Notes: generated by a model from the letters alone, not told the origin. Positions 251 through 28,484 are shown, numbered from the stretch's first letter. The stretch: DNA of 64,000 nt from a virus (IMGVR_UViG_3300023184_000047:34057-98056); one strand, 5' to 3'. Numbers and translations: made by a program.

Positions 251-1126
251 ATGATAACATATACATTATCTACCTTTAACACATTAAACTACTTAAAACT
301 TGCAATTCATTCAGCTAGAGAAAATGGTTATTATAAAGACGCTCCATTTATTATACATGCTGAAAATTGTACTGATGGTACTGATGAATGGTTAGAAGAA
401 AATAAAGAAAGATATAATTTAGAAGTCTATATTGAAAAAAATGAAACCCCTCGAGGAATAGGTGGAGGAATGAATTTTTGCGCTAGTAAAGTTAAAACCA
501 AATACATTGGGTTTCTATCCTCGGACTTTTATATGTCTCGAAATTGGGATAAAGAATTAGTAGAATTGTGTGAAAATAACCCTCAAGATAAACTATGGAC
601 CTTTTGTTATAGAGTAGAACCAGATATTTTTAATGATCCACATAGCAGACCCGGAGTTATTAAAGTATCAGAAGATACTTTTGGAGAATATTATCATAAC
701 TTTAAAGCTGATTTGTTTGAAGAATGGGCTGATGAATTTACCACATTAAATGATATCCAATACAATCTACCTCAGGGAGTAAGTGGTGTGATCAAAAAAG
801 AAGATTGGGACTATATAGGAGGTAATGATGATAGATTTGCTCCAATGTATTGGGAAGATGCTGATATATTTACTAGGATGTTAAATGAAGGTTTTAAATT
901 TATTACAACAAGTAAAACATTATTATATCATTTTGCCTCCAGAACTAGCAGATTCCCAGATGATAATTTAAAACAAAGACCAGCTCATTTAGCCGAGTAT
1001 GAGCAAAGAAGTTTACGTAGATTTATAGAAAAGTATGGGAAATTACCACAACATGGTCCTTTAGGAGAATATTATCCTATGCCTATTGTAGATGGTTCAC
1101 CAAATAGAATAAACCAAAATAACTAA
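251..1126 (+). CDS. putative glycosyltransferase (hypothetical)
   Basis: 291-aa ORF between fcl and gmd. Only weak GT-A-like N-terminal features; context-based call. Confidence 0.3.
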   Translation: MITYTLSTFNTLNYLKLAIHSARENGYYKDAPFIIHAENCTDGTDEWLEENKERYNLEVYIEKNETPRGIGGGMNFCASKVKTKYIGFLSSDFYMSRNWDKELVELCENNPQDKLWTFCYRVEPDIFNDPHSRPGVIKVSEDTFGEYYHNFKADLFEEWADEFTTLNDIQYNLPQGVSGVIKKEDWDYIGGNDDRFAPMYWEDADIFTRMLNEGFKFITTSKTLLYHFASRTSRFPDDNLKQRPAHLAEYEQRSLRRFIEKYGKLPQHGPLGEYYPMPIVDGSPNRINQNN

Positions 1127-1127
1127 T

Positions 1128-2096
1128 ATGAGTAAAACAGCATTAATAACCGGGATAAACGGAATGGATGGAAGTCACTTAGCAGATTTCCTATTAGAAA
1201 AAGGATATATTGTTTACGGTTTGGAGAGACGCAGCTCAGGTGAAACTAGAGCAAATATTCTTCACCTTCAAGATAGAATAAAATTCATCAAAGGAGACTT
1301 AACAGACCAAAATTCATTGCTTCGAGCTCTTAAAGAATCTCAGCCAGATGAAGTATATAACTTAGCTGCTCAATCCTTTGTAGGTGAAAGTTGGAATACA
1401 CCTGAACAAACTAGTGATGTAACAGGATTAGGAGTACTTAGGATGCTAGAAGCCATTCGTGAATACGGCTCAGATAAAATCAAATTTTATCAAGCATCAT
1501 CTTCAGAAATGTTTGGACGTATGGTTGAAAACCCAGCAAATGAAAACACCCCATTTTATCCTCGTTCACCTTATGGTGTTGCTAAATTATATGGACATTG
1601 GATAACCAAAAACTACAGAGAATCTTATAATATGTTTGCCTGCTCAGGTATATTATTTAACCATGAATCCGAAAGACGTGGTTTGGAATTTGTAACTAGA
1701 AAAATAACTAATGGTGTAGCTAAAATACATTTAGAATTAGCAGATCACATTTCATTAGGTAATTTAGATGCTCAACGTGACTGGGGATATGCTCCTGATT
1801 ATGTTGAAGCAATGTGGTTAATGTTACAGCAAGATACTCCTGATGACTATGTTATTGCTACTAATTGTACTTATTCTATTAAAGATTTCTTAGATGAAGC
1901 CTTTATAGCAATTGGGATTGCAGATTGGGAACCATATGTTAAAATAGATCCCAAATTTATCCGCCCAGCTGAAGTTGATATTCTTAGGGGAAATTGTACA
2001 AAAGCAGAACAAAATTTAAGATGGGCACCCAAAACTAGTTTTAAAGAAATGGTACACTTAATGGTACAAAATGATATAAAATTATTAAGTAAATGA
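1128..2096 (+). CDS. gmd: GDP-mannose 4,6-dehydratase
   Basis: N-terminus ALITGINGMDGSHLADFLLEKGYIVYGLERRSS matches the GMD Rossmann motif [25 protein letters not shown].RRSS. Short-chain dehydrogenase YxxxK present (YGVAKLYGHW). Length 322 aa. Confidence 0.85.
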   Translation: MSKTALITGINGMDGSHLADFLLEKGYIVYGLERRSSGETRANILHLQDRIKFIKGDLTDQNSLLRALKESQPDEVYNLAAQSFVGESWNTPEQTSDVTGLGVLRMLEAIREYGSDKIKFYQASSSEMFGRMVENPANENTPFYPRSPYGVAKLYGHWITKNYRESYNMFACSGILFNHESERRGLEFVTRKITNGVAKIHLELADHISLGNLDAQRDWGYAPDYVEAMWLMLQQDTPDDYVIATNCTYSIKDFLDEAFIAIGIADWEPYVKIDPKFIRPAEVDILRGNCTKAEQNLRWAPKTSFKEMVHLMVQNDIKLLSK

Positions 2097-3145
2097 TATC
2101 ACTAATAATACCTGTTACAACATCTAATTTAAACTATACAAATAATATAGTTCGTAATATTAGAGATTTATACCCTAATGAAGAAGAAGTTGAAATTATT
2201 CTAGAAACTAACGATAATGTCAGTTTGGGAATTAATTACAATAACGCTGTTGCTCGTGCTAAAGGTGAAAAAATAATATTATTACATAACGATATGGTTT
2301 TATCTAAAGGTTTTATAGAAACCATGGATAAACATATAAGTAAACGCACAATAACGACGTATACTCGCATAGAACCTCCCATTTACCCAGATATATATCC
2401 TGGTAAAGTTATTAAAGATTGTGGCTCGGACTTAGGTACATTTGATGAAAACCTATTTAATCAAATTCAATTAGAAGAAAGTTTAATCGATGGGGGTTCT
2501 CAATTATTCTTTGGATGTTATAAAGAAGATTATATTGGGATTGATGGGTATACATTTAAAAAATTTTGTGAAGATGATGATCTTCACTTAAGATATCAAC
2601 TAGCCGGATTCGAACATAAAGTAAGTTCAGCTTATGTTTATCATTTTGTAAGCAAAACATCACGTGTAGGAGACTATAATCATATAGAAAAAAATTCAAA
2701 TCGTGATTTTATTCGTAAATGGGGTTCAAGAAAACCATCTGTAAAATATAATATTGCTTATGTTGTTAAAAATTGTCAATTACCTGTTTTAGATACCTTT
2801 GAATTATTTTGTGATAGAATATATGTAAATGAACGATTATCTATTGGTAGATTGTGGGATTACGTTGAATTAGAACAGGAAAATACTTCATTTGATCTAT
2901 CAAAGAGAGTATATACTATAGAACATAATGATCCAATACTAGAAAACGATATTGTAGTTGAATTTGATTATCTAAAATTTTCTCCTGAAGCTTGGGAAAT
3001 ATTACAACAATTACCTAATATAATTAAAGAAAATGGTGAAGTAGGTACATTTGAGTTGGATATATTTACAATTACTATTAATTCACTGCCTGAATACCAA
3101 AACGATTTAATATTTATATCAAAACAACATAATGAAACCAGTTAG
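2093..3145 (+). CDS. family-2-like glycosyltransferase
   Basis: N-terminal IIPVTTSN...EIILETNDN...ILLHNDMVL pattern is typical of a GT-A fold. Start overlaps the gmd stop (ATGA). Ends with TAG. Confidence 0.45.
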   Translation: MISLIIPVTTSNLNYTNNIVRNIRDLYPNEEEVEIILETNDNVSLGINYNNAVARAKGEKIILLHNDMVLSKGFIETMDKHISKRTITTYTRIEPPIYPDIYPGKVIKDCGSDLGTFDENLFNQIQLEESLIDGGSQLFFGCYKEDYIGIDGYTFKKFCEDDDLHLRYQLAGFEHKVSSAYVYHFVSKTSRVGDYNHIEKNSNRDFIRKWGSRKPSVKYNIAYVVKNCQLPVLDTFELFCDRIYVNERLSIGRLWDYVELEQENTSFDLSKRVYTIEHNDPILENDIVVEFDYLKFSPEAWEILQQLPNIIKENGEVGTFELDIFTITINSLPEYQNDLIFISKQHNETS

Positions 3146-6235: not shown

Positions 6236-6329
6236 GGAGGATTAAGCCGAAAGATTCTGGGTACCGGCAGCGCACTTGAAATGCGTCGATCATTAAAATG
6301 GTGTATGGGTTCGAATCCTATATCCTCCG
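6236..6329 (+). tRNA. tRNA-Ser(TGA), type II
   Basis: Acceptor ggaggat/atcctcc perfect. Anticodon stem gcgca/tgcgt with loop cTTGAaa. Long variable arm. T-arm atggg-TTCGAAT-cctat. Confidence 0.65.
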
Positions 6330-6335
6330 CAACAT

Positions 6336-6407
6336 TGGCTTATAGTGTAATGGTTAGCACAAAACACTTTGACTGTTTTAGTCTAGGTTCGAGTCCTAGT
6401 AAGCCAA
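6336..6407 (+). tRNA. tRNA-Gln(TTG)
   Basis: Acceptor tggctta/taagcca. D-stem gtgt/gcac. Anticodon stem aaaca/tgttt with loop cTTTGac. T-arm ctagg-TTCGAGT-cctag. Confidence 0.75.
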
Positions 6408-6416
6408 CTTTAATTT

Positions 6417-6490
6417 CTAGTAGCGAAGCCCGGTTTCATGCCTCACTTGGACTGAGGAGTACGTAGGTTCGAATCCTGCCTATTAGACCA
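6417..6490 (+). tRNA. tRNA-Pro(TGG), CCA encoded
   Basis: Anticodon stem cctca/tgagg with loop cTTGGac. T-arm gtagg-TTCGAAT-cctgc. Acceptor ctagtag/ctattag, then A and CCA. D-arm irregular. Confidence 0.5.
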
Positions 6491-6548
6491 CCACAAATAG
6501 AGCCGACGGCCGTGTAAAGGTGCCGCCTATCGTGAATTTCGGCAATAT

Positions 6549-6621
6549 TCCCTTGAAGCTCATGTGGACGGGCACTCCGCTTTTAACGGAGGGGTAGATG
6601 GTTCGAGGCCATCCGGGGGAA
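6549..6621 (+). tRNA. tRNA-Lys(TTT)
   Basis: Acceptor tcccttg/cggggga (two G.U). D-stem gctc/gggc. Anticodon stem ctccg/cggag with loop cTTTTaa. T-arm gatgg-TTCGAGG-ccatc. Confidence 0.7.
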
Positions 6622-6680
6622 CAAACACAGTTTACTTCGGCAACGTTCTGTATGGTGCACATAAAAATCGGAGCCGACCA

Positions 6681-6751
6681 GCCTCGATGGCGTAATGGAA
6701 GCGTATTTGTTTTACATGCAAATGGCAGTGGTTCGATTCCACTTCGAGGTA
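6681..6751 (+). tRNA. tRNA-Val(TAC)
   Basis: Acceptor gcctcga/tcgaggt. Anticodon stem tttgt/gcaaa with loop tTTACat. T-arm agtgg-TTCGATT-ccact. Confidence 0.7.
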
Positions 6752-6759
6752 CAAAAATT

Positions 6760-6840
6760 GGGTAGCAAAAGTCGTTCGGATACGGCAGCCAGACTGTAAA
6801 TTTGGTCCTCACGGGAGTGGTTCGAGTCCACTGCTGCCCA
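6760..6840 (+). tRNA. tRNA-Tyr(GTA), long variable arm
   Basis: Acceptor gggtagc/gctgccc. Anticodon stem ccaga/tttgg with loop cTGTAaa. Variable stem-loop tcc-tcacg-gga. T-arm agtgg-TTCGAGT-ccact. Confidence 0.6.
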
Positions 6841-6943
6841 CAAAGTGTTGACTTCAGGTTCCCAGTAGGGAAGTACACTTAAATAAAACAAGCACGGGGA
6901 AAGTGTCGACTTAAGAAACGGCAAGTACCAACGAAGGGAGTAC

Positions 6944-7016
6944 GGGTCTTTTGTATAGCTGGTGCGTACGCTAGTCTGAAGAACTAGAGGAGCAGGTTCG
7001 ATTCCTGTAGGACCCA
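6944..7016 (+). tRNA. tRNA-Phe(GAA)
   Basis: Acceptor gggtctt/aggaccc. Anticodon stem ctagt/actag with loop cTGAAga. T-arm gcagg-TTCGATT-cctgt. Confidence 0.75.
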
Positions 7017-7029
7017 CTGTATTAACCTT

Positions 7030-7101
7030 GGACTTGTAGCTCAGAGGAAGAGCGTTTGCCTGTTAAGCAAAGGGTCGGGATTTCGAAATTCCCCAAGTCC
7101 G
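7030..7101 (+). tRNA. tRNA-Asn(GTT)
   Basis: Acceptor ggacttg/caagtcc perfect. D-arm tagctcagaggaagagc. Anticodon loop cTGTTaa. Confidence 0.75.
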
Positions 7102-7110
7102 CAATAAATT

Positions 7111-7182
7111 GCTCCTATAGTAGAATGGTTAGCACACATCTCTGATAAGGATGAAATGGAGGTTCAATTCCTTCTAGGAGTA
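7111..7182 (+). tRNA. tRNA-Ile(GAT)
   Basis: Acceptor gctccta/taggagt. Anticodon stem catct/ggatg with loop cTGATaa. T-arm ggagg-TTCAATT-ccttc. Confidence 0.65.
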
Positions 7183-7240
7183 CAAAGTAGAATAAGCTAG
7201 TGTTGGGCCTACAGGAATGATATCTTCCACAACACTCTTT

Positions 7241-7327
7241 GGAGAATAGTCTAATATTGGTTCGTAGTGGCATCCTGCTAAGATGTTCCTGGTAAAACAG
7301 GTGAGAGTTCGATTCTCTTGTTCTCCG
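7241..7327 (+). tRNA. tRNA-Ser(GCT), type II
   Basis: Acceptor ggagaat/gttctcc. Anticodon stem gcatc/gatgt with loop cTGCTaa. Variable arm cctg-gtaaaa-cagg. T-arm gagag-TTCGATT-ctctt. Length 87 nt. Confidence 0.7.
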
Positions 7328-7463
7328 CAAAAAAACCTCCTCACCGTCCTCACAACGCATCTAAGGAATGCAGGAGATGAAAGTACGAACGGGGCACTAG
7401 TGGTAGGACACTTGATCAAAAAATCTATAGTACAACGATAGGGTAAGAGGTTCCCTATCAACT

Positions 7464-7532
7464 ACCGAGTGAGCTTGGGATCAAGGATGGCTCATATCCG
7501 CCCTTAGGTTGGTTCGAATCCAACACTCGGTA
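7464..7532 (+). tRNA. tRNA-Met(CAT) copy 1 (Met, fMet or Ile-lysidine type)
   Basis: Acceptor accgagt/actcggt perfect. Anticodon loop cTCATat. T-arm gttgg-TTCGAAT-ccaac. Compressed D-arm, 69 nt. Confidence 0.5.
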
Positions 7533-7603
7533 CAAAATTAGAAAATGAAGATTAAACCAAACTCATGCCGGATGAGCTTCTTATTGGTTGTCTAATTTTA
7601 CAT

Positions 7604-7677
7604 GGTGATTGTAGCTGAATTGGTAAAGCGTCTGATTGTGGTTCAGGAGATTGTGGGTTCGAGTCCCATCTTTCACA
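7604..7677 (+). tRNA. tRNA-His(GTG) with extra 5' G(-1)
   Basis: Anticodon stem tctga/tcagg with loop tTGTGgt. T-arm gtggg-TTCGAGT-cccat. A G precedes the acceptor, as in His tRNAs. Acceptor gtgattg/ctttcac has two T.T mismatches. Confidence 0.5.
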
Positions 7678-7684
7678 CAAACAC

Positions 7685-7763
7685 ATCCCTGTGGTGAAAT
7701 GGTAAACACGTTTGGTTTAAGCCCAAATGCCTAGGCTTGCTGGTTCGACTCCAGTCAGGGATA
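7685..7763 (+). tRNA. tRNA-Leu(TAA), type II
   Basis: Acceptor atccctg/cagggat perfect. Anticodon stem tttgg/ccaaa with loop tTTAAgc. Variable arm about 11 nt. T-arm gctgg-TTCGACT-ccagt. Confidence 0.7.
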
Positions 7764-7768
7764 CAATT

Positions 7769-7840
7769 GGTCTTATAGTTTAATTGGAAAAACTTATCGC
7801 TACGAACGATAGAACAAAGGTTCGATCCCTTTTAAGACCT
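7769..7840 (+). tRNA. tRNA-Arg(ACG)
   Basis: Acceptor ggtctta/taagacc perfect. D-stem gttt/aaac. Anticodon stem tatcg/cgata with loop cTACGaa. T-arm aaagg-TTCGATC-ccttt. Confidence 0.8.
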
Positions 7841-7845
7841 CAACT

Positions 7846-7917
7846 GCCCTATTAGTTAAACGGATATAACAAATCTCTTCTAAAGATTAATTCTAGGTTC
7901 GATTCCTGGATGGGGTA
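7846..7917 (+). tRNA. tRNA-Arg(TCT)
   Basis: Acceptor gccctat/atggggt. D-stem gtta/taac. Anticodon stem aatct/agatt with loop cTTCTaa. T-arm ctagg-TTCGATT-cctgg. Confidence 0.75.
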
Positions 7918-8015
7918 CAAAAAAATCGTATACCAAAGTTTCCCGTTTAGGATGCAGCTTTAGAGTATTAAGGTGAATAGGCCATTCACAGTAGGTTTAG
8001 CGATATCCTGCAAAT

Positions 8016-8086
8016 GCGTCAGTGGTGCAATGGTAGCATACCGGTCTCCAAAACCGACGATGAGGGTTCGACTCCCTCCTGGCGTG
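8016..8086 (+). tRNA. tRNA-Trp(CCA)
   Basis: Acceptor gcgtcag/ctggcgt. D-stem gtgc/gcat. Anticodon loop cTCCAaa. T-arm gaggg-TTCGACT-ccctc. Confidence 0.65.
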
Positions 8087-8338
8087 CTAAATTATTAATT
8101 ATGAAAAAGAAATTCGATATGCATTAAGTTTATTAACTTAAAATGCATAAAAATGAGAATCAAAAACTATACCAACAAAGAGTATAAGTTAGAAAAAAGA
8201 AAAGAGTATTCAGAATGGGATACCTGGTTTGAAGACTATTGGAGTAAAAAATCCAATATATGGGCCTTCAAGTATAGAGAATACCGTACCTGGAAGTACA
8301 ACAGAAAAACACAATACAAACCTTTAAAATAAGTTATC

Positions 8339-8845
8339 ATGAGTAAGTACCAAAAAACACTGGTAATCGATTCAAGCTTTATGGCAAGAAGCATTATCTC
8401 TACCGAAAGAGCTTTCGTGATTTCGTATAAGGGCAATGCAGAAATAATAGCTGAACACCCAGAAACATTTGGATTAGTAAATCCTAATCTAGAAATTTTT
8501 AAACCTTCAATCATTAGGGTTTACAAATACGTAAAACAAAACATTCAAAAAGTTCCTCTAACAAGAGAAAATGTTTATCGAAGAGATAATTACGAATGTG
8601 TTTATTGTGGATCAAGCCACTTGAAGTCACTAACACTTGATCATGTCATTCCACAATCAAAAGGTGGACAAAATGCTTGGGATAATTTAGTAACAGCATG
8701 TAGAAGATGTAATCATGAAAAAGCAGATTTAACTCTTGAGGAATATGGTAAAGAAATAGTAGAACCAAAAAGACCTCACTATTTTATGCTTATGAAGCAG
8801 TTAACACACATTCCAGTAGAATGGGAAAAGTTTTTACTTTTTTAG
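8339..8845 (+). CDS. HNH homing endonuclease inserted in the tRNA array
   Basis: CVYCGSSHLKSLTLDHVIPQSKGGQNAWDNLVTACRRCNHEK is the canonical HNH/ββα-Me motif with a Cys4 zinc site. A 59-aa ORF sits just upstream (8152..8331). Confidence 0.8.
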   Translation: MSKYQKTLVIDSSFMARSIISTERAFVISYKGNAEIIAEHPETFGLVNPNLEIFKPSIIRVYKYVKQNIQKVPLTRENVYRRDNYECVYCGSSHLKSLTLDHVIPQSKGGQNAWDNLVTACRRCNHEKADLTLEEYGKEIVEPKRPHYFMLMKQLTHIPVEWEKFLLF

Positions 8846-8873
8846 TAAAAAAGTTTGGATATTAAAAAATAAG

Positions 8874-8893
8874 TTCGTATATTTAAGTATAAT
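8874..8893 (+). promoter_or_regulatory. class-A promoter-like motif (second tRNA sub-cluster)
   Basis: aagTTCGTATATTTAAGTATAATtaaag. Confidence 0.45.
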
Positions 8894-9062
8894 TAAAGAG
8901 ATACAAAAATCGGAATTGACCGAGGCATGTGATTAACAGTATTGTACTGACTCGCTTAAGCCCTAAGAGCACTTTAATTTTAAATATAAATCATCTACTA
9001 CATAACACGGCGCCAAATTAATTGTGACATGTACTGTCTGGAAGGTCAGGCTAGGTGAATAG

Positions 9063-9132
9063 GGGCAGGATGGTTATGGAGACCGGCGGGATTGCAAACT
9101 CCGCAGAGTAAGTTCGATTCTTACCTTGCCCT
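9063..9132 (+). tRNA. tRNA-Cys(GCA)-like
   Basis: Acceptor gggcagg/cttgccc. T-arm gtaag-TTCGATT-cttac perfect. Anticodon loop tTGCAaa on a 4-bp stem. D-arm weak. Confidence 0.45.
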
Positions 9133-9227
9133 CTTTTAAGGTTCGACCCTCTACCAAATGTGTTACACCCACAGATGGATACCGAGAGGGAGCTACCGAC
9201 TGATAAGTGACCGCACATGCGGTAAAT

Positions 9228-9340
9228 GGCAAGGTGGCGGAATGGTAAACGCACTGAATAGTTAAACAGAGTGGATAAGTCGCATTATAGTTGAAATACA
9301 CATAAGACCCACGTGCAGGTTCAATTCCTGTCCTTGGCCA
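9228..9340 (+). pseudogene. aberrant 113-nt tRNA-like gene (tRNA with about 40-nt insertion, or pseudo-tRNA)
   Basis: Clean 5' half ggcaagg-tg-gcgg-aatggtaaa-cgc. T-arm gcagg-TTCAATT-cctgt. Acceptor partner ccttggc (6 of 7 paired). No canonical 5-7-5 anticodon arm in the 62 nt between them. Confidence 0.3.
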
Positions 9341-9352
9341 CAAAAATAAATT

Positions 9353-9426
9353 GCTCCGGTGCTGGAACTGGTATACAGGGCGGTCTTAGAAACCGTTTAT
9401 TGAGGGTTCGAATCCCTCCTGGAGTA
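9353..9426 (+). tRNA. tRNA-Leu(TAG) with short variable arm (atypical for Leu)
   Basis: Acceptor gctccgg/ctggagt. Anticodon stem gcggt/accgt with loop cTTAGaa. Variable region only 5 nt. T-arm gaggg-TTCGAAT-ccctc. Confidence 0.55.
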
Positions 9427-9431
9427 CAAAA

Positions 9432-9498
9432 TTACAGTTAGCTTATAGTAAAGCAGCAGGGGCTAACCTGCAGAACGGATACGAAAACCGGCTGTAAT
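9432..9498 (+). tRNA. tRNA-like with CUA (amber-reading) anticodon and degenerate T-arm; possible suppressor or pseudo-tRNA
   Basis: Acceptor ttacagt/gctgtaa (6 bp plus one G.U). D-stem gctt/aagc perfect. Anticodon stem gcagg/cctgc perfect with loop ggCTAac. T-region cgg-atacgaaaa-ccg is non-canonical. Length 67 nt. Confidence 0.35.
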
Positions 9499-9503
9499 TA
9501 AAT

Positions 9504-9576
9504 GCTTCCTTAGCTCAATTGGCAGAGCACTTGTTTTGTAAACAAGAGGTTATCGGATCGTGGCCGGTAGGAAGCT
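9504..9576 (+). tRNA. tRNA-Thr(TGT) with non-canonical T-loop
   Basis: Acceptor gcttcct/aggaagc perfect. D-stem gctc/gagc perfect. Anticodon stem cttgt/acaag perfect with loop tTTGTaa. T-arm atcgg-ATCGTGG-ccggt lacks TTC. Confidence 0.65.
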
Positions 9577-9627
9577 CAAATGGTCTGAGGGAGTCCTTTA
9601 AGGAATAAATAGCCTGTCCCTCTCTAT

Positions 9628-9701
9628 GCAATTATAGTGTTCAACGGCTAGCACGTGGGCCTTCCAAGTCTGAAGTTTCGGTTCGAATCCGAATAATTGC
9701 T
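9628..9701 (+). tRNA. tRNA-Gly(TCC)
   Basis: Acceptor gcaatta/taattgc perfect. D-stem gtgt/gcac. Anticodon loop cTTCCaa (stem with three G.U). T-arm ttcgg-TTCGAAT-ccgaa perfect. Confidence 0.7.
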
Positions 9702-9752
9702 CAAGGGTGTGTGGGAACCCAAGAATATGTGATGAACATATACCCACAATCT

Positions 9753-9824
9753 GCTGCGTTAGTGAAGGGGTTAACACGTATCACTTTCTATGATAAGGCA
9801 CGGGTTCGAATCCCGTACGCAGTA
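9753..9824 (+). tRNA. tRNA-Glu(TTC)
   Basis: Acceptor gctgcgt/acgcagt. Anticodon stem tatca/tgata with loop cTTTCta. T-arm acggg-TTCGAAT-cccgt. Confidence 0.75.
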
Positions 9825-9830
9825 CAATAA

Positions 9831-9902
9831 GGGGCTATAGTGAAATTGGCATCACGATAGATTTGCATTCTGTTATTCCGGGTTCGAATCCCGGTAGCTC
9901 CA
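9831..9902 (+). tRNA. tRNA-Ala(TGC)
   Basis: Acceptor ggggcta/tagctcc (G3.U70 present). D-stem gtga/tcac. Anticodon loop tTTGCat. T-arm ccggg-TTCGAAT-cccgg. Confidence 0.75.
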
Positions 9903-10010
9903 CAAAATTAGGAAGTAAAGACTGAGCAGGACACCGTAAAATGATTCGCAACATTAGAGCTGTTTCTTTTTTTAATATGTGAAAGCGAGATATTAAAACC
10001 TAATTTTTTT

Positions 10011-10082
10011 GGTCTATTCGTTCAACGGCTAGGATACTACCCTGTCACGGTAGGGATGAGAGTTCGATTCTCTCATAGACCG
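10011..10082 (+). tRNA. tRNA-Asp(GTC)
   Basis: Acceptor ggtctat/atagacc perfect. Anticodon stem ctacc/ggtag with loop cTGTCac. T-arm gagag-TTCGATT-ctctc. Confidence 0.75.
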
Positions 10083-10091
10083 CTAATAAAT

Positions 10092-10164
10092 TGCGTTAAA
10101 GTGTAAAGGTTGCATCCTGGTCTCATAAGCCAGGGGGGTGGTTCGAGTCCACGTTACGCTACCA
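10092..10164 (+). tRNA. tRNA-Met(CAT) copy 2, CCA encoded, unpaired 1:72
   Basis: Anticodon stem ctggt/gccag with loop cTCATaa. T-arm ggtgg-TTCGAGT-ccacg. 3' end ...ttacgct-A-CCA. Position 1 (T) does not pair with position 72 (T). Confidence 0.5.
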
Positions 10165-10236
10165 GGCCTTGTAGCTCAAAGGAGGAGCAGTTCGCTCATA
10201 ACGAAAAGGTTGGGATATCATAATTCCCCAAGGCCA
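10165..10236 (+). tRNA. tRNA-Met/Ile(CAT) copy 3 with non-canonical T-loop
   Basis: Acceptor ggccttg/caaggcc perfect. D-stem gctc/gagc. Anticodon loop cTCATaa. T-region ggga-TATCATAAT-tccc lacks TTC. Directly abuts the previous tRNA. Confidence 0.55.
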
Positions 10237-10300
10237 CTAAATTTTATCCATTATGAGGTCAATTCCTTCGTCTCCAATGTAGGTTAGCTATTGCTAACTT

Positions 10301-10534
10301 ATGACTCAGAAATTGAGAATTTGGAGAGTAGTCCCTACCAGTAAGACTGGTGTTCAGGCTCCCACGTTTTTTGTTGAAACAACAGAGAATGGTAGAGAAG
10401 AAGCAGTAGCATCTGCAAACCGCCAAGCAAGACAAAGGTCAGGTTTGGGTAAGTTTAACAATTGGAATTTCGAATTAACCAAAATGAATGTCCGAGTTGA
10501 CAGACATGGAAAGTATATTCGTCATCACCAATAA
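10301..10534 (+). CDS. hypothetical small basic protein
   Basis: 77-aa ORF after the tRNA array. A hairpin (gttagc-tatt-gctaac) sits just before the ATG. Confidence 0.3.
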   Translation: MTQKLRIWRVVPTSKTGVQAPTFFVETTENGREEAVASANRQARQRSGLGKFNNWNFELTKMNVRVDRHGKYIRHHQ

Positions 10535-12425: not shown

Positions 12426-12468
12426 TTTTAAAAATAATTACAAAAAGGCTTGCTTACGTAAGTCTTTT

Positions 12469-12489
12469 TTCGTATATTTAAGTATAAAT
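12469..12489 (+). promoter_or_regulatory. class-A promoter-like motif
   Basis: tttttTTCGTATATTTAAGTATAAATttaaaa about 17 nt upstream of the ATG at 12506. Confidence 0.45.
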
Positions 12490-12505: not shown

Positions 12506-12889
12506 ATGGAAAATTTAATTAAAATTGCAAAGTACGAAAAAACTGAACAAGGGTTTAATCATATTGGGTATGATGAGTATAGAATTACATACGGTAAAGC
12601 TCAAAAGGTTCATCAACTTAGAATCATAGTAAATGGTCAATACACTGAGCATAAAATAAATTTGATTGATGGTTGTAGTGGCTATAAACATGCTCTTCTA
12701 TCTGCAATTAGCGATTATAAAAATTGTCGTTTAAAAAATTACCCAAATCAGAGTGTAAAGAAAACAATAAAACTTGATGTGTTGCAACAAATTTATAGTA
12801 AAAACATTATTGCTAATGTAAAAAACTATTTATTGACAATAAACAAAGAAGAAAAAAGAGATACATTAACAAAATTTGAATTAATATAA
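12506..12889 (+). CDS. hypothetical protein
   Basis: ORF, co-oriented. Confidence 0.4.
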   Translation: MENLIKIAKYEKTEQGFNHIGYDEYRITYGKAQKVHQLRIIVNGQYTEHKINLIDGCSGYKHALLSAISDYKNCRLKNYPNQSVKKTIKLDVLQQIYSKNIIANVKNYLLTINKEEKRDTLTKFELI

Positions 12890-12897
12890 CTAAGGTT

Positions 12898-13548
12898 ATG
12901 AAACTAGTATTAGAAAAAGGACAGCAATTGTTCTTTACATCAGACACACATTACTCACACTCAAACATTTGTAGTGCTACTACAAACTGGTCAGTGAATG
13001 ATGGATATGCTCGTAAGTTTGATTCATTGGAAGATATGAACAACACTCTAGTGAATAACATTAACAACGTGGTTGGTGAAGATGATATCTTAATTCACTT
13101 AGGTGACTGGTCATTTGGAGGATTTGATAAGATTGAAGAATTTAGAAGTCAAATCAACTGTAAAAACATTCACTTAGTACTTGGAAACCACGATCATCAT
13201 ATTGAAAGAAACAAGGAAGATGTTCAAAAACTATTCTCCTCAGTACAACAATACTTGAGATTAGAAGTAAGAAGACCAATCAATAAAGCAACAACTGAGA
13301 AGTTTATTTTCGTGTGTATGCACTATCCAATTGCTTCTCATCACGATATGAATCAAGGTGTAATTCACTTGCATGGTCACGTTCATTTACCGTATCATCT
13401 ACGATTGGCAGAGGGTAAAGCAATGGATGTTGGAGTAGATGGAAATGAATTGGAGCCAATTTCAATGGACCAGGTATTAGGTATTATGGAAATGCAACCA
13501 ATTAAAAAATTAACCTTACCAAAGGACCACCATGAGCGTAGAATATAA
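12898..13548 (+). CDS. calcineurin-like metallophosphoesterase (candidate RNA-end healing phosphatase)
   Basis: Ordered motifs SDTHYSH, LGDWSFGG, LGNHDHH, MHYP and HGHVH match the DxH...GDxxD...GNH[DE]...H...GH signature. Confidence 0.7.
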   Translation: MKLVLEKGQQLFFTSDTHYSHSNICSATTNWSVNDGYARKFDSLEDMNNTLVNNINNVVGEDDILIHLGDWSFGGFDKIEEFRSQINCKNIHLVLGNHDHHIERNKEDVQKLFSSVQQYLRLEVRRPINKATTEKFIFVCMHYPIASHHDMNQGVIHLHGHVHLPYHLRLAEGKAMDVGVDGNELEPISMDQVLGIMEMQPIKKLTLPKDHHERRI

Positions 13549-13680
13549 ATAATTTAAGGTTTTTCATAAAAAGTTGATATTTATATGTATAGCGTCGGAC
13601 CTATATCATATCGAAAAAAATCAATGTAAAGCTTATGGCAAGTAGAGAGTCCGACCTCGAAAGCCTAAGCTTTTTTTATT

Positions 13681-14361
13681 ATGAAAAAGTGTAGTAAATG
13701 TAAGGAGATAAAGTCCTTAAGTGAATTTTATAAAGACAAACATAAGGTAGATGGAATAACTTCTAACTGTAAGATCTGTGTTAAGCAAGGAAGTAGTTTA
13801 TACTATAACCAAAATAAGGAAACAGTTATAGAAAGAACCTCAAAGTACGGTAAGGAGTACATGAAAGCTTATAGAGTACAGAATGTAGAGTATTTCCAAA
13901 ACTATCGTAAATCATACAGAGAATCTAATCCTGACTATCAGAAACAGTACCATCAACAGTACTATGCAGAAAATAAAGAATCTCTAAATGAATATCAAAA
14001 AGAATGGAACAAAATAAATATTCACAGCACTAAATGGAGAAGCCTTCTATCTGAAACAGTAAAAAGATTAGGACAGAGAAAAGAAAGTAGTACATCAAAC
14101 CTACTAAAATACTCAGCCTTAGAATTAAAAGAACATCTAGATTCTTTAGGAATGATTTGGGATTATCATCAAATTGATCACAAAGTACCTGTTACTTGGT
14201 TTAAGGAAGATACACCTCCTCATATTGTAAATGATCTAAGAAACCTACAACCACTCTCTCCCGAAGAAAATCAAATTAAAGGAAACAGATTTAGTAGTAA
14301 CATTTCTGAAGATTATTTAGAATTAATTAAACCTTTTCTTAAAAATAATTTGGAAATATAA
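13681..14361 (+). CDS. HNH-family endonuclease with N-terminal Cys-rich region
   Basis: IDHKVPVTWF...NLQPLSPEENQIKGN is HNH-like. N-terminal CSKC...CKIC. Confidence 0.5.
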   Translation: MKKCSKCKEIKSLSEFYKDKHKVDGITSNCKICVKQGSSLYYNQNKETVIERTSKYGKEYMKAYRVQNVEYFQNYRKSYRESNPDYQKQYHQQYYAENKESLNEYQKEWNKINIHSTKWRSLLSETVKRLGQRKESSTSNLLKYSALELKEHLDSLGMIWDYHQIDHKVPVTWFKEDTPPHIVNDLRNLQPLSPEENQIKGNRFSSNISEDYLELIKPFLKNNLEI

Positions 14362-14368
14362 AAAATAG

Positions 14369-14389
14369 TTCGTATATTTAAGTATAAAT
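14369..14389 (+). promoter_or_regulatory. class-A promoter-like motif
   Basis: TTTGgaaatataaaaaatagTTCGTATATTTAAGTATAAAT: a TTTG lies about 20 nt upstream of the TAtaTTTA element. Confidence 0.45.
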
Positions 14390-14403
14390 TTAAAATAAAA
14401 GTT

Positions 14404-14787
14404 ATGAAGGAATTATTCCTACTTCGTGGATTACCTGGAGCAGGTAAATCAACATTGGCAAAGTCAATTGGAGGTTTCCATATTGAAGCAGATATGTTCT
14501 TTATGGAGGGAGATGAGTATAAATTTGAACCAGACCAATTAAGAGAAGCTCATGCTTGGTGTCGAAATGCAGTAAGTGTTTGGATGGTAAATAATACTGA
14601 AAAAATAGTAGTATCAAATACTTTTACTATGGAATTTGAAATGCAACCATACTTTGATCTAGCAAAAGAATACGGATACAGAGTATATTCTTTGATTGTA
14701 GAGAATAGACATAGAGGAGTAAATGAGCATGGAGTACCAGAAGAAAAATTAGTACAAATGAAAAATAGATTTGAAATTTGCTTGTAG
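14404..14787 (+). CDS. P-loop polynucleotide 5'-kinase-like protein (Pnk kinase-domain homologue)
   Basis: Walker A LRGLPGAGKSTLAKS. Downstream VVSNTF...LAKEYGYRV...NRHRG...VPEEKLVQM parallels the T4 Pnk kinase domain (ISDTNL...AKEYGWKV...RG.KAVP..VL). Ends with TAG. Confidence 0.6.
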   Translation: MKELFLLRGLPGAGKSTLAKSIGGFHIEADMFFMEGDEYKFEPDQLREAHAWCRNAVSVWMVNNTEKIVVSNTFTMEFEMQPYFDLAKEYGYRVYSLIVENRHRGVNEHGVPEEKLVQMKNRFEICL

Positions 14788-14835
14788 AATCAAAATAAAT
14801 TTCGTATATTTAGGTATAAATTTAAAACAAAGGTT

Positions 14836-15357
14836 ATGAAAGAAACATTTGAACAATACTTACAAAGACTAAAAGACAGACGTACAGAAGACGATTACAA
14901 GTACACTGATGAGGATTTTGAAAAGTATAAAGACTATATCTCAGATTGTTGTAAAAATGGAATGAGTGTTTACAAATGTCTTGAGTTGATGTATTTTGCT
15001 GAAAGAGATATGGATGATCAATTATTCAATAGAGAACCTAAACAAGAAACAGAGGTAAGTGATTTTATTAATAAACTAATGTACCGAATTAAAGTACTAA
15101 GAACTGGTATAGAAAATGCTTTAGTTTTAAATGATATTAATGAAGTAAAAAAAATTTTATCCAAGTCCTTAGAGGATGTACCAACAACCTCAGATGGAAA
15201 ATGGCAAAAAGAACAAGACAATACTGCAAATGAGATACTAGAATACATTTTACTAAATGATGATGGTGTTGGAATTGCATTAGGATACAATTCAAGAGAA
15301 ATGATAGAACAGTACTTTAAAACAATAAATTATGAAATCAATCAAAATAGGAAATAA
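14836..15357 (+). CDS. hypothetical protein
   Basis: ORF, preceded by the class-A motif at 14801. Confidence 0.4.
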   Translation: MKETFEQYLQRLKDRRTEDDYKYTDEDFEKYKDYISDCCKNGMSVYKCLELMYFAERDMDDQLFNREPKQETEVSDFINKLMYRIKVLRTGIENALVLNDINEVKKILSKSLEDVPTTSDGKWQKEQDNTANEILEYILLNDDGVGIALGYNSREMIEQYFKTINYEINQNRK

Positions 15358-15616
15358 TACATACGTACATGTTTTTCTTCATAAAATCCAAGTATCATTA
15401 GAAGAGGCAGTTGTTTCAAATGAAACCTGGGGATTTTTAGATTATGAAGAACAGGCAAATAGCTATATTGATGCTTTGGAAGGTCATGAATGTGTAGCAT
15501 TTTTAGAAGAATTACACAAAGTATGTGCTCAAAGAATTGTACAGCACTGGGAGGAATACGCTCCTAGCCAATTAAAAGAAAAACGTAATAAACAATATTT
15601 AAAGTTTAAAAAATAA
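15332..15616 (+). CDS. hypothetical protein
   Basis: ORF, co-oriented. Confidence 0.35.
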   Translation: MKSIKIGNNTYVHVFLHKIQVSLEEAVVSNETWGFLDYEEQANSYIDALEGHECVAFLEELHKVCAQRIVQHWEEYAPSQLKEKRNKQYLKFKK

Positions 15617-15620
15617 GAAA

Positions 15621-15767
15621 ATGGAAAAGTGTCCTAACTGCGATATAGAATTAGAATGGACAGGAGTATCTGACTGCTACTCAGGGGATGTACTAATGAC
15701 AGTTATATGCAAGTACTGTCCAGAATGTTTATACGTAACAGATGAATCTGTAAGACTATCTAAATAA
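15621..15767 (+). CDS. small Zn-ribbon protein (48 aa)
   Basis: Hand-translated MEKCPNCDIELEW...CKYCPEC with two CxxC pairs. Below the ORF-track size cutoff. Confidence 0.3.
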   Translation: MEKCPNCDIELEWTGVSDCYSGDVLMTVICKYCPECLYVTDESVRLSK

Positions 15768-15778
15768 AAAAGAAGAAA

Positions 15779-15997
15779 ATGTCAAATAAGGTAAAATTTA
15801 TCGGCAATGGAGATGAAATTTTTAAAGATGAAATTCATTATACATCACCGGTTGGAAGCGATTACACTTTATGTGGTCTAACACTTGATGGGGATTTTAT
15901 GACTTGTGGTCAATATGAAAAAACAAATAAAAATGTAAATTGTGAAAACTGTCAAGAAATTGTTGATTTTGCAAAAACTGTTAAAAAAACTTGGTAA
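15779..15997 (+). CDS. hypothetical Cys-containing small protein
   Basis: 72-aa ORF with C..C...CENC. Confidence 0.35.
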   Translation: MSNKVKFIGNGDEIFKDEIHYTSPVGSDYTLCGLTLDGDFMTCGQYEKTNKNVNCENCQEIVDFAKTVKKTW

Positions 15998-16021
15998 TTA
16001 AGGAATTTAAAAAAGAAGAAA

Positions 16022-17155
16022 ATGGAAAATAATAATAGTGTTTGCTTTATAGCAAAAATCAACGAAGTAAGAGCAATCGAAGGTGCTGATAACATCGAAC
16101 AAGCAGTTATCGGAGGATGGAATACGATTGTAAAAAAAGGAACACATCAAGCCGGACAACTAGTAATAGTTGCAACTACTGATGCAGTTATCCCTTTAGA
16201 ACTTTCTGACAAGTTCGGTGTAACCTCTTACCTAAGAAAAGGACAAAGAGTTAGAACAGTAAAACTAAGAGGAGTTTATTCTGAATGCTTAGTAATACCA
16301 ATTACTCCAGGACATGAGATTAACTACTCAGAGGGTCAAGACATGATGGGAAAACTTGGTATCGTAAAATACGAACCACCAGTTAAACAAATTCAACTTG
16401 CTTCAGGTAGAAAGATTAAATGGAGAGACAATCAAAACTTCCATATCTATTACAAATTCCCAAACCTTAAAAACGTTGATGGAATGTTTACAGAACAAGA
16501 TACAGTTCAAATCACTAGAAAGATTCACGGAACAAATGCAAGATATGGTATTGTAAAGAAAGGACAATTAACATTCTGGGATAAAGTAAAAAAATTCTTT
16601 AGAATTGCTGATGCTTGGATTGATTATGAATACATTTATGGATCTCATAACTGTGAAAAAGGAAGTGACTCTCAAGGATTTTATTCAACTGATGTTTGGA
16701 GAACAACTGAAGAAAAGTATGGTATCAAACAAAGGCTTTGGAATTATGTGAAACATATGCAAACTCCTGAAACAATCGGAGAAGGAATAATTCTTTACGG
16801 AGAAATTTACGGAGCTGGTATTCAAAAGAACTATGAATATGGTTTAGAAGATATTAAGTTTACAGGATTCGATTTAAAAATAAATGGAGAGTACGTATCT
16901 ACACGTAGAGCAGAGTTCTTAATAGAGGCTGAATGTGAATTAGGACTCCCTCACGTAGAAGTTCTTTACGAAGGACTATGGAATCAAGAAGTTCAAGATA
17001 GCTTTGTATTCAAAAACTTCATTGAAGGAACAAAAGTACCACATGAAGGAATTGTAATCAAACACATCTCAGGTGAAAGAAAGAAAGTAGCAAAGGTAAT
17101 CAATCCAGACTATTTAATCTACGGAGAGAAGAATGATGTAGGAGATTCACATTAA
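16022..17155 (+). CDS. ATP-dependent RNA ligase (Rnl2/DraRnl-like nucleotidyltransferase with N-terminal extension)
   Basis: Motif I KIHGTN (same hexapeptide as the T4 Rnl2 active-site lysine motif). Motif III ILYGEIYG. Motif IV EGIVIK. Motif V KKVAK. About 160-aa N-terminal domain precedes motif I, as in DraRnl-type ligases. Confidence 0.7.
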   Translation: MENNNSVCFIAKINEVRAIEGADNIEQAVIGGWNTIVKKGTHQAGQLVIVATTDAVIPLELSDKFGVTSYLRKGQRVRTVKLRGVYSECLVIPITPGHEINYSEGQDMMGKLGIVKYEPPVKQIQLASGRKIKWRDNQNFHIYYKFPNLKNVDGMFTEQDTVQITRKIHGTNARYGIVKKGQLTFWDKVKKFFRIADAWIDYEYIYGSHNCEKGSDSQGFYSTDVWRTTEEKYGIKQRLWNYVKHMQTPETIGEGIILYGEIYGAGIQKNYEYGLEDIKFTGFDLKINGEYVSTRRAEFLIEAECELGLPHVEVLYEGLWNQEVQDSFVFKNFIEGTKVPHEGIVIKHISGERKKVAKVINPDYLIYGEKNDVGDSH

Positions 17156-17170
17156 AAATAATTGATAAAA

Positions 17171-17196
17171 GGCTTGCTTCGGCAAGCTTTTTTTCG
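17171..17196 (+). terminator. rho-independent terminator
   Basis: ggcttgc-TTCG-gcaagc hairpin plus T7, immediately followed by a class-A motif at 17193. Confidence 0.7.
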
Positions 17197-17227
17197 TATA
17201 TTTAAGTATTATTAAAAACAAAAAGTT

Positions 17228-21202: not shown

Positions 21203-21223
21203 ATTTGGTAAATTAAAATAAAT

Positions 21224-21621: not shown

Positions 21622-22056
21622 ATGAAAAAAAGAATATACTTAGACGATATAAGAACACCTGTATCACCAAACAATGAATGGGTGGAAGGAATACCAGATT
21701 GGACTGTTGTTCGTTCTTATGATGAGTTTGTAGCCAAAGTAACTGAGATTGGACTAGAAAATATTGAATTAATATCATTAGATCACGACTTAGGACCTTC
21801 AGCAATGGCTGAATGGCATTCAAACGTATATCATAATTATGAACTGAATTATGATAATATTCAGGAAAAAACTGGAATGGATTGTACTAAATGGTTAGTT
21901 GAACAATGGCTGGATGGAGCTCCTGTTGTTGATGTTGTAATACATTCTGCAAATGCAGTTGGTAGTGCAAACATGATGGGGTACATAAACAACTACAGAC
22001 ACATTCATAGATTACCTCAGAATTGTGTAAGAGTACAAATAGAACATACAGTATAG
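21622..22056 (+). CDS. hypothetical protein
   Basis: ORF, co-oriented. Confidence 0.4.
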   Translation: MKKRIYLDDIRTPVSPNNEWVEGIPDWTVVRSYDEFVAKVTEIGLENIELISLDHDLGPSAMAEWHSNVYHNYELNYDNIQEKTGMDCTKWLVEQWLDGAPVVDVVIHSANAVGSANMMGYINNYRHIHRLPQNCVRVQIEHTV

Positions 22057-23809: not shown

Positions 23810-24526
23810 ATGAGACAATTCAAACTAATAAAAGAATACCCAGCATCTCCTAAATTAGGATTTATAGTACTTGAAAGACACTGTGGGATGTATCATAATA
23901 TAGAGACAGGAAATATGTATGGTTCTCAAATGATTGAAAGTCATCCTGAATACTGGGAAGAAGTAGTTGAGAAGGATTATGAAATCCTAATATCAAGAGT
24001 AGTACCACAAGAAATACTTTCAGTAAAACGTCTCTCAGATGGAGAAGTATTTACAGTAGGTGATGAATTCAAAGCTACTATCGGAAGTAGAGATGTTATT
24101 AGAACTATTCAGAGAATAAAAGTTGAAGGAGATATAATAACTATTCATCACGAAAATGGAGATCTTTCTAATCAAAAACACTTTGGTATTTTTCATACTA
24201 TTAAGAAAGTAAAACAACCAATCTTTCTAACACACGATGGAAAGAATATTTATGAAGGAGATAAAGTATGGTACGTAAATAAAGAGAATTTTTACTACGA
24301 TTATATCTTACCATCCTACGATTATATCTTACCATCCCCAGGAATTAAATTCTGTTCTGATATAAATGCATATTTTCTAACAAGAGAAGATGCAGAAGAT
24401 TATATTAAAAGAAACAGACCACGACTGTCAATTGAAGACTGTTTTAAAATTCTTCAAAATCAGTTTCTATATTCAGTAGGGTTTGAAGAATCAATTGAAG
24501 AATATATAAGAAAAAATAATAAATGA
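23810..24526 (+). CDS. hypothetical protein containing a 7-aa tandem duplication
   Basis: A 21-nt unit is directly duplicated at about 24296..24337, giving YDYILPS-YDYILPS. Preceded by the class-A motif at 23775. Confidence 0.4.
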   Translation: MRQFKLIKEYPASPKLGFIVLERHCGMYHNIETGNMYGSQMIESHPEYWEEVVEKDYEILISRVVPQEILSVKRLSDGEVFTVGDEFKATIGSRDVIRTIQRIKVEGDIITIHHENGDLSNQKHFGIFHTIKKVKQPIFLTHDGKNIYEGDKVWYVNKENFYYDYILPSYDYILPSPGIKFCSDINAYFLTREDAEDYIKRNRPRLSIEDCFKILQNQFLYSVGFEESIEEYIRKNNK

Positions 24527-25230
24527 AAACAAGAATAACAGTAATCTCAGATACACATACAAAACATGGATTGATTCCCCTTACAGATTTACCTGGAGGG
24601 GATTTACTAATCCATGCCGGAGACATAATGAATTCAGGATATAATAAAAATGATATCTTAGACTTCTGTACTTGGTTTCATTCACTTGAGCAATATGATA
24701 AAAAAATATTCATAGCAGGTAATCATGATCGTATGTTTGAGAATCATCCTGAAGGAGTAGAGGAGCTATTAAATATATACTTGGATATTGACTATCTTCA
24801 AGATGAAGCATATGATTTATATGACATGGATACTGATGCAAGTACAAAGATTTATGGTTCACCTTGGCAACCGGAATTCTATTCTTGGGCATTCAATCTT
24901 CCTAAAAATGGAATTGAGTTAGCTGCAAAGTGGGAAGCAATTCCTGACAACACAGACATTCTTATTACTCATGGTCCTGCATTTGGTACTTTGGATACAG
25001 TAGCAGGTCGTCCTTGGGATAATTTAGGATGTGAGTTACTAGCACAAAGAATTGAAGTTATTAAACCAAAAATTCATGTATGTGGTCATATCCATAGTGG
25101 TAGAGGCTATGTGTTTAAAAATGGTACACATTTCTTTAATGCAGCAGTATTGGATGAGCAGTACGAGTACACTCAAAAGCCAATGACCTTTGATTGGGAT
25201 AAAGAAAAAAATACAATTGAGTTTATCTAA
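24523..25230 (+). CDS. calcineurin-like metallophosphoesterase (second copy)
   Basis: ISDTHTKHG, IHAGDIMNSG, IAGNHD, ITHGP and CGHIH motifs. Confidence 0.65.
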   Translation: MKTRITVISDTHTKHGLIPLTDLPGGDLLIHAGDIMNSGYNKNDILDFCTWFHSLEQYDKKIFIAGNHDRMFENHPEGVEELLNIYLDIDYLQDEAYDLYDMDTDASTKIYGSPWQPEFYSWAFNLPKNGIELAAKWEAIPDNTDILITHGPAFGTLDTVAGRPWDNLGCELLAQRIEVIKPKIHVCGHIHSGRGYVFKNGTHFFNAAVLDEQYEYTQKPMTFDWDKEKNTIEFI

Positions 25231-28395: not shown

Positions 28396-28465
28396 AGCCA
28401 ATTGGTGTACTGGCGTACGCACCCGATCGTAAGGGCAAGGGTTGGTTCGATTCCAACATTGGCTT
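28396..28465 (+). tRNA. orphan tRNA-like gene with irregular anticodon arm
   Basis: Acceptor agccaat/attggct perfect. D-stem gtgt/acgc. T-arm gttgg-TTCGATT-ccaac perfect. Anticodon region ccc-gatcgtaa-ggg gives a 3-bp stem with an 8-nt loop; identity unclear (CGT or TCG). Confidence 0.4.
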
Positions 28466-28484
28466 CAAATAAAAACAATAAGTT

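Follow-up and report, generated by a model that had tools for sequence, protein, structure and literature searches.

Does a phage that carries a large array of its own tRNA genes also carry the enzymes to mend tRNAs cut by its host? The question is raised by a 64,000-nucleotide stretch of viral DNA (IMGVR_UViG_3300023184_000047:34057-98056; hereafter the window) from a Flavobacterium-type phage, in which genes for a phosphoesterase (PE), a kinase (KIN), and an RNA ligase (LIG) form a co-directional run on the + strand. An earlier note, made from the sequence alone, had placed these three genes within 4.3 kb of one another and had interpreted them as a counter-defence set that heals and seals cleaved tRNA. 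All three open reading frames (ORFs) are confirmed, at 12898-13548 (PE, 216 aa), 14404-14787 (KIN, 127 aa), and 16022-17155 (LIG, 377 aa), and gene calling done independently on a public metagenome contig of 94.6 kb, which carries the identical ligase, gives the same set.

Phages classically respond to host defences that cleave tRNA by RNA heal-and-seal repair, phage T4 mending PrrC-cut tRNA-Lys with Rnl1 (Amitsur 1987, as cited in PMC4408790), and many newly found defence systems target tRNA. We think it probable that PE, KIN, and LIG constitute such a module, most likely serving to repair tRNAs that host anticodon nucleases or other tRNases have cleaved. The three proteins are assignable to families and folds, their catalytic motifs are intact, and their genes are linked in a conserved, modular manner; from these assignments, the linkage, and the accompanying tRNA arrays, all of which support the counter-defence interpretation, we infer what each enzyme does, which substrate it acts on, and the role of the set. 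In the pathway we envisage, a host tRNase would cut a tRNA to leave a 2′,3′-cyclic phosphate on one end and a 5′-OH on the other; PE would heal the 3′ end to a 3′-OH, either alone or once a cyclic-phosphate-processing receiver-domain protein (cRec) had opened the cyclic phosphate; and KIN would use a nucleoside triphosphate to convert the 5′-OH to a 5′-phosphate. LIG, adenylylated on Lys167, would then pass AMP to the 5′-phosphate and join it to the 3′-OH, the broken tRNA being held together by its own stems during sealing.

Families and catalytic motifs of the three enzymes

Profile searches return the Pfam families Metallophos, AAA_33, and RNA_ligase for PE, KIN, and LIG, respectively, in agreement with the assignments first made. 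PE (12898-13548, + strand) is a calcineurin-like metallophosphoesterase resembling Aquifex aq_1665, with a Metallophos match (E = 6.5e-5) above the curated cutoff and a PHROGs ‘phosphoesterase’ match at 3e-42. The motifs expected to hold its binuclear metal centre (DxH, GD, GNH[DE], H, and GHxH; here D16, H18, G69-D70, G96-N97-H98, H142, and G160-H161-x-H163) are invariant among 11 diverse family members, as is a family-specific C-terminal DHH. PE is the candidate 2′,3′-cyclic-phosphate or 3′-phosphate end-healing enzyme. When the family profile is searched against the PDB, the sole match at E ≤0.1 is aq_1665 (1XM7; 4.9e-12); homology to the phosphatase domains of Clostridium thermocellum Pnkp (CthPnkp) or lambda was rejected on this search, and on profile comparison kinship to the Pnkp/lambda phosphatase branch is undetectable beyond the superfamily level. 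The window also codes for a second, unrelated metallophosphoesterase (24523-25230; Pfam Metallophos, 1e-11), which is 70% identical to gp232 of Flavobacterium phage immuto and which many related loci likewise carry a few kb downstream of the module.

KIN (14404-14787, + strand) is a minimal P-loop kinase of the polynucleotide-kinase clade, matching Pfam AAA_33 (8.9e-10) and, in PHROGs, both ‘ATPase’ (3e-40) and polynucleotide kinase (2e-7). T4 Pnk is its closest relative by sequence profile and by predicted fold, and the profile also matches the CthPnkp kinase domain and Pnkp1. An identity as a dNMP kinase or zeta toxin, which the earlier note had considered, is excluded by the profile and fold rankings, both of which put polynucleotide kinases ahead of (d)NMP kinases and zeta toxins. 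The P-loop (G9-x-P-G12-x-G14-K15-S-T17, fitting GxxxxGK[ST]) is invariant, and so is D30 of an ‘EAD’ motif, which aligns with the T4 catalytic Asp35, the general base. The similarly invariant R102-H103 (‘ENRH’) lies in the segment of the T4 lid Arg126, which contacts the ATP phosphates; there the hidden Markov model alignment is gapped and of low confidence and the predicted local distance difference test score (pLDDT) is 61-76. We regard KIN, from its sequence and predicted fold, as a candidate RNA 5′-OH kinase.

LIG (16022-17155, + strand) is predicted to consist of an N-terminal OB domain followed by an ATP-dependent nucleotidyltransferase domain with Lys167 as the nucleophile. It matches Pfam RNA_ligase (9.5e-17), the PHA02142 N-terminal OB domain (PF21189, residues 10-94; 8.5e-15), and PHROGs ‘RNA ligase’ (3e-54). 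A search with the single sequence matches the Naegleria gruberi RNA ligase (NgrRnl) at 9e-12, and a profile built from seven family members does so at 5.5e-46 over the OB and the nucleotidyltransferase domain alike, placing motif I on the NgrRnl nucleophile K170. The family profile aligns with NgrRnl residues 5-178, which together with the Pfam match answers the earlier question of whether the N-terminal 160 aa form an OB-like domain. The alignment extends almost to the end of both, to residue 336 of the 340 in NgrRnl and to position 378 of the 388 in the profile, and LIG has no C-terminal domain. Throughout the family alignment there is no variation in motifs I (K167-I-H-G), III (G260-E261), IV (F280..F283-D284), and V (E342-G343..K358). 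Because the profile spans both NgrRnl domains, the nucleophiles align, and the motifs are invariant, we place LIG by sequence in the Rnl5 class, as a member of a divergent subclade and no equivalog by NCBI's criterion. Of the earlier assignment to an Rnl2/DraRnl type with motifs I, III, IV, and V, the motifs hold, and the class is Rnl5 rather than Rnl2 proper. Motif I reads KIHG, as in T4 Rnl2, not KLDG, and is followed by an insertion of ~35 aa.

A conserved cassette and its association with tRNA genes

We compared 80 ligase-centred loci from IMG/VR with 65-85% ligase identity, and found KIN in 69 and PE in 43; in the tightest relatives the PE-KIN-LIG gaps are only 3-9 bp. To control for the bias of selecting on the ligase, we used loci chosen on the kinase only, dereplicated at 90% kinase identity and with at least 4 kb on each side (n = 33). 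An RNA ligase lies within 4 kb of KIN in 28 of these (20 Rnl5 and 8 of the T4-Rnl1 family) and PE in 24; cRec is present in 11, a CCA-adding-type nucleotidyltransferase in four, and at least one partner in 32. By these co-occurrence statistics the grouping of PE, KIN, and LIG is far above chance. Four of the loci (L135, L129, L093, and L132) carry a separate HAD_PNKP gene (E ~1e-30) in the slot directly upstream of KIN, 7 bp before it when measured from tblastn match to match and 4 bp by ORF coordinates. The window itself has no HAD_PNKP homologue. The cassette extends to cultured phages: relatives of PE (29-34% identity) and KIN (45-48% identity) flank T4-Rnl1-family ligases in Pseudomonas phage Amme-3, Escherichia coli phage PaulScherrer, and Aeromonas phage 2L372X, and the PaulScherrer KIN relative is annotated ‘polynucleotide kinase’.

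Individual loci differ in their composition. In L122, KIN is followed by a canonical Rnl5 (8436-9524; motif I KLDGSS, 32% identical to LIG) and then by a PolyA_pol-head nucleotidyltransferase of the CCA-adding type (9586-10317), and the gene order in L132 is HAD_PNKP-KIN-CCA-Rnl5.

Several observations nonetheless weigh against tRNA repair. To our knowledge, no anticodon nuclease has been described for the host of this phage. The T4 Pnk residue that binds the acceptor 3′-phosphate, Arg38, aligns with Phe33 of KIN and is F or H across the family; another KIN residue may take over its role. LIG scores 85.7 bits, compared with the curated TIGR02306 cutoff of 151.15. For PE, there is the lack of any CthPnkp or lambda phosphatase domain among its PDB matches; 1XM7, the only solved relative, has no known function; the family is broader than that of KIN (1086 vs 670 phage records); and PE occurs without a detectable KIN or LIG in Flavobacterium phage immuto. 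Finally, the Rnl5 enzymes so far characterised, DraRnl and NgrRnl, act on nicks in duplexes and only weakly on single-stranded RNA, the sealing of loop breaks being attributed to Rnl1 and Rnl4 (PMC4408790).

The observations on PE could mean that only KIN and LIG form a repair pair, and that PE is a mere neighbour with a separate job, for example the hydrolysis of cyclic or other signalling nucleotides or a part in general nucleotide metabolism. Besides the uncharacterised state of 1XM7, this would be in keeping with the absence of PE within 4 kb of KIN in 9 of the 33 dereplicated loci, and with its occurrence in phages of Enterococcus, Bacillus, and Streptomyces, which are not among the listed KIN hosts. 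It is also how immuto, the nearest cultured phage, might be read: its PE is 87% identical, lies right after its tRNA genes, and is followed directly by an endolysin gene. No KIN or LIG orthologue was found elsewhere in immuto, where sensitive blastn returned only a 49-bp terminator element and tblastn over 12-81 kb was empty, the remaining ~90 kb being covered by blastn and a collection-wide tblastn only. We nevertheless find a separate job for PE unlikely. The PE stop codon lies 4-5 bp before the KIN start in many loci; the position upstream of KIN is occupied by either PE or HAD_PNKP (24 vs 4 loci, with both in none); three cultured phage groups, unrelated to one another, have cassettes of the PE-Rnl1-KIN type; and PE and KIN match different parts of phrog_8238, a fused phage ‘RNA ligase’ family of 737 aa, PE corresponding to the phosphoesterase segment of this kinase-PE-ligase fusion.

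A second line of evidence for tRNA repair is the company that the cassette keeps. The array in the window (6249-10236, + strand) contains 22 tRNAs called by ARAGORN (6249-10083) and three further elements found by Rfam only (9228-9339, which is atypical, 10092-10161, and 10165-10236), giving ~25 genes rather than the 27 first counted. A tRNA-Lys(UUU), also part of the earlier description, is indeed present at 6549-6622. The module had been thought to follow immediately on the array; here the array ends 2.27 kb before o127, a conserved gene just upstream of PE, and 2.66 kb before PE itself, and it is in some relatives that the gap between PE and the array shrinks to 70-94 bp. Across 113 loci, tRNA genes lie upstream of the module in 60, at least 10 of them in 38 of those 60; large arrays adjoin the module in both gene orders, being downstream where the order is KIN-o127-LIG, and some loci have the cassette with no tRNA genes nearby. 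We propose that the two are complementary, the array replacing tRNAs and the module mending them.

The same linkage could reflect maturation of the phage's own tRNA transcripts, by splicing or end repair of the array products, with no counter to host nucleases. The element at 9228-9339 could be taken to favour this: it is a 112-nt tRNA-like sequence with good acceptor, D, and T arms and ~40 extra nt in the anticodon/variable region. We consider a maturation role very improbable. Processing of bacterial and phage tRNAs by RNases P, E, and Z is known from textbooks to leave 5′-P/3′-OH ends that need no healing, no splicing endonuclease appears in a Pfam survey of 67 window ORFs, ARAGORN finds no intron-containing tRNA, and the cassette also occurs in the loci that have no tRNAs nearby. 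As for 9228-9339, an intron-containing tRNA or splicing substrate was considered and dropped, with no ARAGORN match when introns are allowed and a poor anticodon stem, and we leave it as an atypical tRNA-like element. A lone ‘tRNA-???’ with a two-base anticodon is called by ARAGORN at 28396-28466, far from the main array.

The preference of Rnl5 enzymes for duplexes raises another alternative, that the module mends nicks in duplexes, either phage DNA or RNA:DNA hybrids with ribonucleotide 3′-OH ends and 3′-phosphate/5′-OH damage, and not tRNA. T4-type Pnk enzymes are known from textbooks to act on DNA ends too, and the DNA ligase gene is only 1-3 kb from the cassette in the phages of Pseudomonas, E. 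coli, and Aeromonas. DraRnl and NgrRnl carry out Mn2+-dependent sealing of 3′-OH(RNA)/5′-PO4 nicks in duplexes and accept DNA in the 5′-phosphate and template strands; Rnl5 helps DNA integrity recover after irradiation, and such a duplex-repair role has been proposed for DraRnl in Deinococcus radiation resistance (PMC5397189, PMC4408790). Duplex repair would not, however, account for the recurrent adjacency to tRNA arrays in two gene orders, for a ligase that can be swapped with Rnl1, a loop/tRNA-repair ligase, or for the CCA-adding enzyme and cRec among the neighbours, and we judge it quite unlikely. These same features favour tRNA repair by the PE-KIN-LIG module.

Relation to known repair systems

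The steps proposed here, 3′ healing, 5′ phosphorylation, and ATP-dependent sealing, are the three by which T4 Pnkp and Rnl1 counter PrrC, and in close relatives of the cassette the ligase is of the Rnl1 family or the phosphatase a HAD_PNKP. The parts differ from those of T4: the phosphatase is a binuclear metallophosphoesterase instead of a DxDxT HAD domain fused to the kinase, KIN is a free-standing protein of 127 aa instead of a domain of a bifunctional enzyme, and the ligase is an Rnl5 with an N-terminal OB domain, of the nick-sealing type, instead of Rnl1. Bacterial Pnkp/Hen1 systems (C. thermocellum Pnkp; Pnkp1-Rnl-Hen1) combine the same P-loop kinase, calcineurin-type metallophosphoesterase, and ATP-dependent RNA ligase, but do so in one polypeptide where the phage has three genes, with Rnl4 in place of Rnl5 and with a phosphatase to which the aq_1665-like PE has no detectable match. 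Of the 27 Pfam families matched by 67 window ORFs, the 25 listed include no methyltransferase, whether of the Hen1 2′-O type or another, a limited test. The set belongs to neither system: its genes are separate, its phosphatase is of a different branch or superfamily, its ligase is an Rnl5, and it lists no Hen1. LIG shares its architecture (N-terminal OB and nucleotidyltransferase, no C-terminal domain) with DraRnl (DR_B0094) and NgrRnl, from which it diverges in having KIHG for KLDG and the insertion after motif I. The two also differ in context, since DraRnl shares its operon with a DEDDh-like protein (PMC5397189) and the partners of LIG are KIN, PE, and the tRNA array.

Phage tRNA arrays have been associated with ATP-dependent RNA ligases, polynucleotide kinases, and phosphoesterases in passages of a jumbo-phage survey (Iyer et al. 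2021, Viruses 13:63, PMC7824862), which also note occasional calcineurin-like phosphatases and cRec-ligase operons. Those passages do not describe a cassette of an aq_1665-like PE, a 127-aa kinase, and Rnl5 or Rnl1, nor the exchange of PE with HAD and of Rnl5 with Rnl1, nor o127 and the X200 family (see below) as partners. Our literature search found no experimental work on this cassette. Most likely, then, the locus represents a known kind of phage counter-defence assembled from unusual parts, as a conserved, mix-and-match set.

A more far-reaching idea, which we put forward tentatively, is that Rnl5 enzymes are bona fide tRNA-repair ligases in these phages, interchangeable with Rnl1 within one cassette, with o127 and X200 as new specificity or assembly factors. 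The cassette would in that case offer a 3′ slot filled by the metallophosphoesterase, HAD_PNKP, or cRec, a 5′ slot for the minimal 127-aa Pnk, a sealing slot for Rnl5 or Rnl1, and an optional CCA-adding enzyme. If true, this would provide a first physiological substrate for the Rnl5 family, for which published work gives the natural substrates as unknown (PMC4408790, PMC5397189), and the context of tRNA arrays, CCA-adding enzyme, and cRec makes this role directly testable. The cassette shows the pathway to be modular, one small kinase being combined with phosphatases of two unrelated types and with ligases of two families. As candidate enzymes it offers a polynucleotide kinase that is very small and stands alone, and a phosphoesterase family that is uncharacterised, and it flags two fellow-travelling proteins of unknown function.

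Companion proteins, insertions, and flanking elements

Beside the three genes proposed at the outset, two likely components had been left out, o127 (12506-12889, + strand) and cRec (21622-22056, + strand). The first is a conserved 127-aa protein, recognised from its ORF call and its linkage in relatives, that ends 8 bp before PE. It lies between KIN and the Rnl5 ligase in 13 loci and after KIN in Rnl1-type loci, accompanying the module in three gene orders; the family is small and phage-only (169 proteins). An AF2 (AlphaFold2) model (pLDDT 72.6) has four long beta strands and three helices, and o127 has no match in Pfam or PHROGs and nothing below E 0.5 in Foldseek against the PDB. From its linkage, o127 is a candidate accessory component of the module.

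cRec is identified by Pfam PF20274 (75.8 bits vs a cutoff of 27; E = 4.3e-21) and lies 4.5 kb downstream of LIG. Homologues directly adjoin module genes elsewhere, as in the orders PE-cRec-KIN-LIG (L079) and KIN-cRec (L102). It is a candidate opener of 2′,3′-cyclic phosphates, an activity that in the literature stands as a prediction only (PMC7824862). X200, a family of ~200 aa beginning MINN[IL][ED], occurs within 4 kb of KIN in 8 of the 33 dereplicated loci (for example, L135:9013-9624, L129:8457-9074, and L122:10314-10913); it has no Pfam match and no member in the window.

An HNH/endonuclease VII-like ORF (13681-14361, + strand; phrog_1035, 1.3e-17) separates PE from KIN, and four small ORFs of 173, 94, 48, and 72 aa (14836-15997, + strand), two of them Cys-rich (15621-15767 and 15779-15997), separate KIN from LIG. 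The HNH gene and two Zn-ribbon mini-proteins had been described as interleaved with the repair genes; the ORFs are there, and a functional part for them was rejected, as nearly all of ~150 related loci lack them at these places. Because such genes are almost never found there in relatives, we interpret the HNH ORF and the four small ORFs as insertions; the former is probably a mobile homing endonuclease outside the pathway, and the latter are sporadic, variable filler. A further HNH ORF (8339-8845; PF14279/PF01844, ~1e-15) lies inside the tRNA array, and both HNH ORFs look like homing-endonuclease insertions.

The unit is bounded on both sides by similar elements. Upstream, a hairpin and T-run are followed by the promoter-like motif TTTTCGTATATTT (12442-12480, + strand); downstream, the intrinsic-terminator hairpin GCTTGC-TTCG-GCAAGC and its T-run are again followed by the motif (17166-17205, + strand). 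In both, at 12442 and 17172, what precedes the motif is a GC hairpin plus T-run. The stretch from o127 to LIG that the two elements enclose has no terminator-like site, and within the module is an internal copy of the motif without a hairpin, ATTTCGTATATTT (14799-14811, + strand). A search with a Bacteroidetes-type promoter consensus was uninformative. The motif TTCGTATATTT is present in eight copies on the + strand (12467, 14799, 17191, 18047, 21222, 23773, 25800, and 31010) compared with 0.7 expected, each 30-40 nt before an ORF start and that at 21222 being cRec's own; it is a probable phage promoter element. In immuto, the terminator/promoter element (17152-17200) is 88% conserved and lies directly after the PE gene.

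At 251-3145 and elsewhere in the window, the Pfam survey identifies glycosyltransferases (among them the first ORF, 251-1126), a GDP-mannose 4,6-dehydratase, an epimerase, a thymidylate synthase, an SPFH/Band 7 protein, and a SegE-like GIY-YIG endonuclease.

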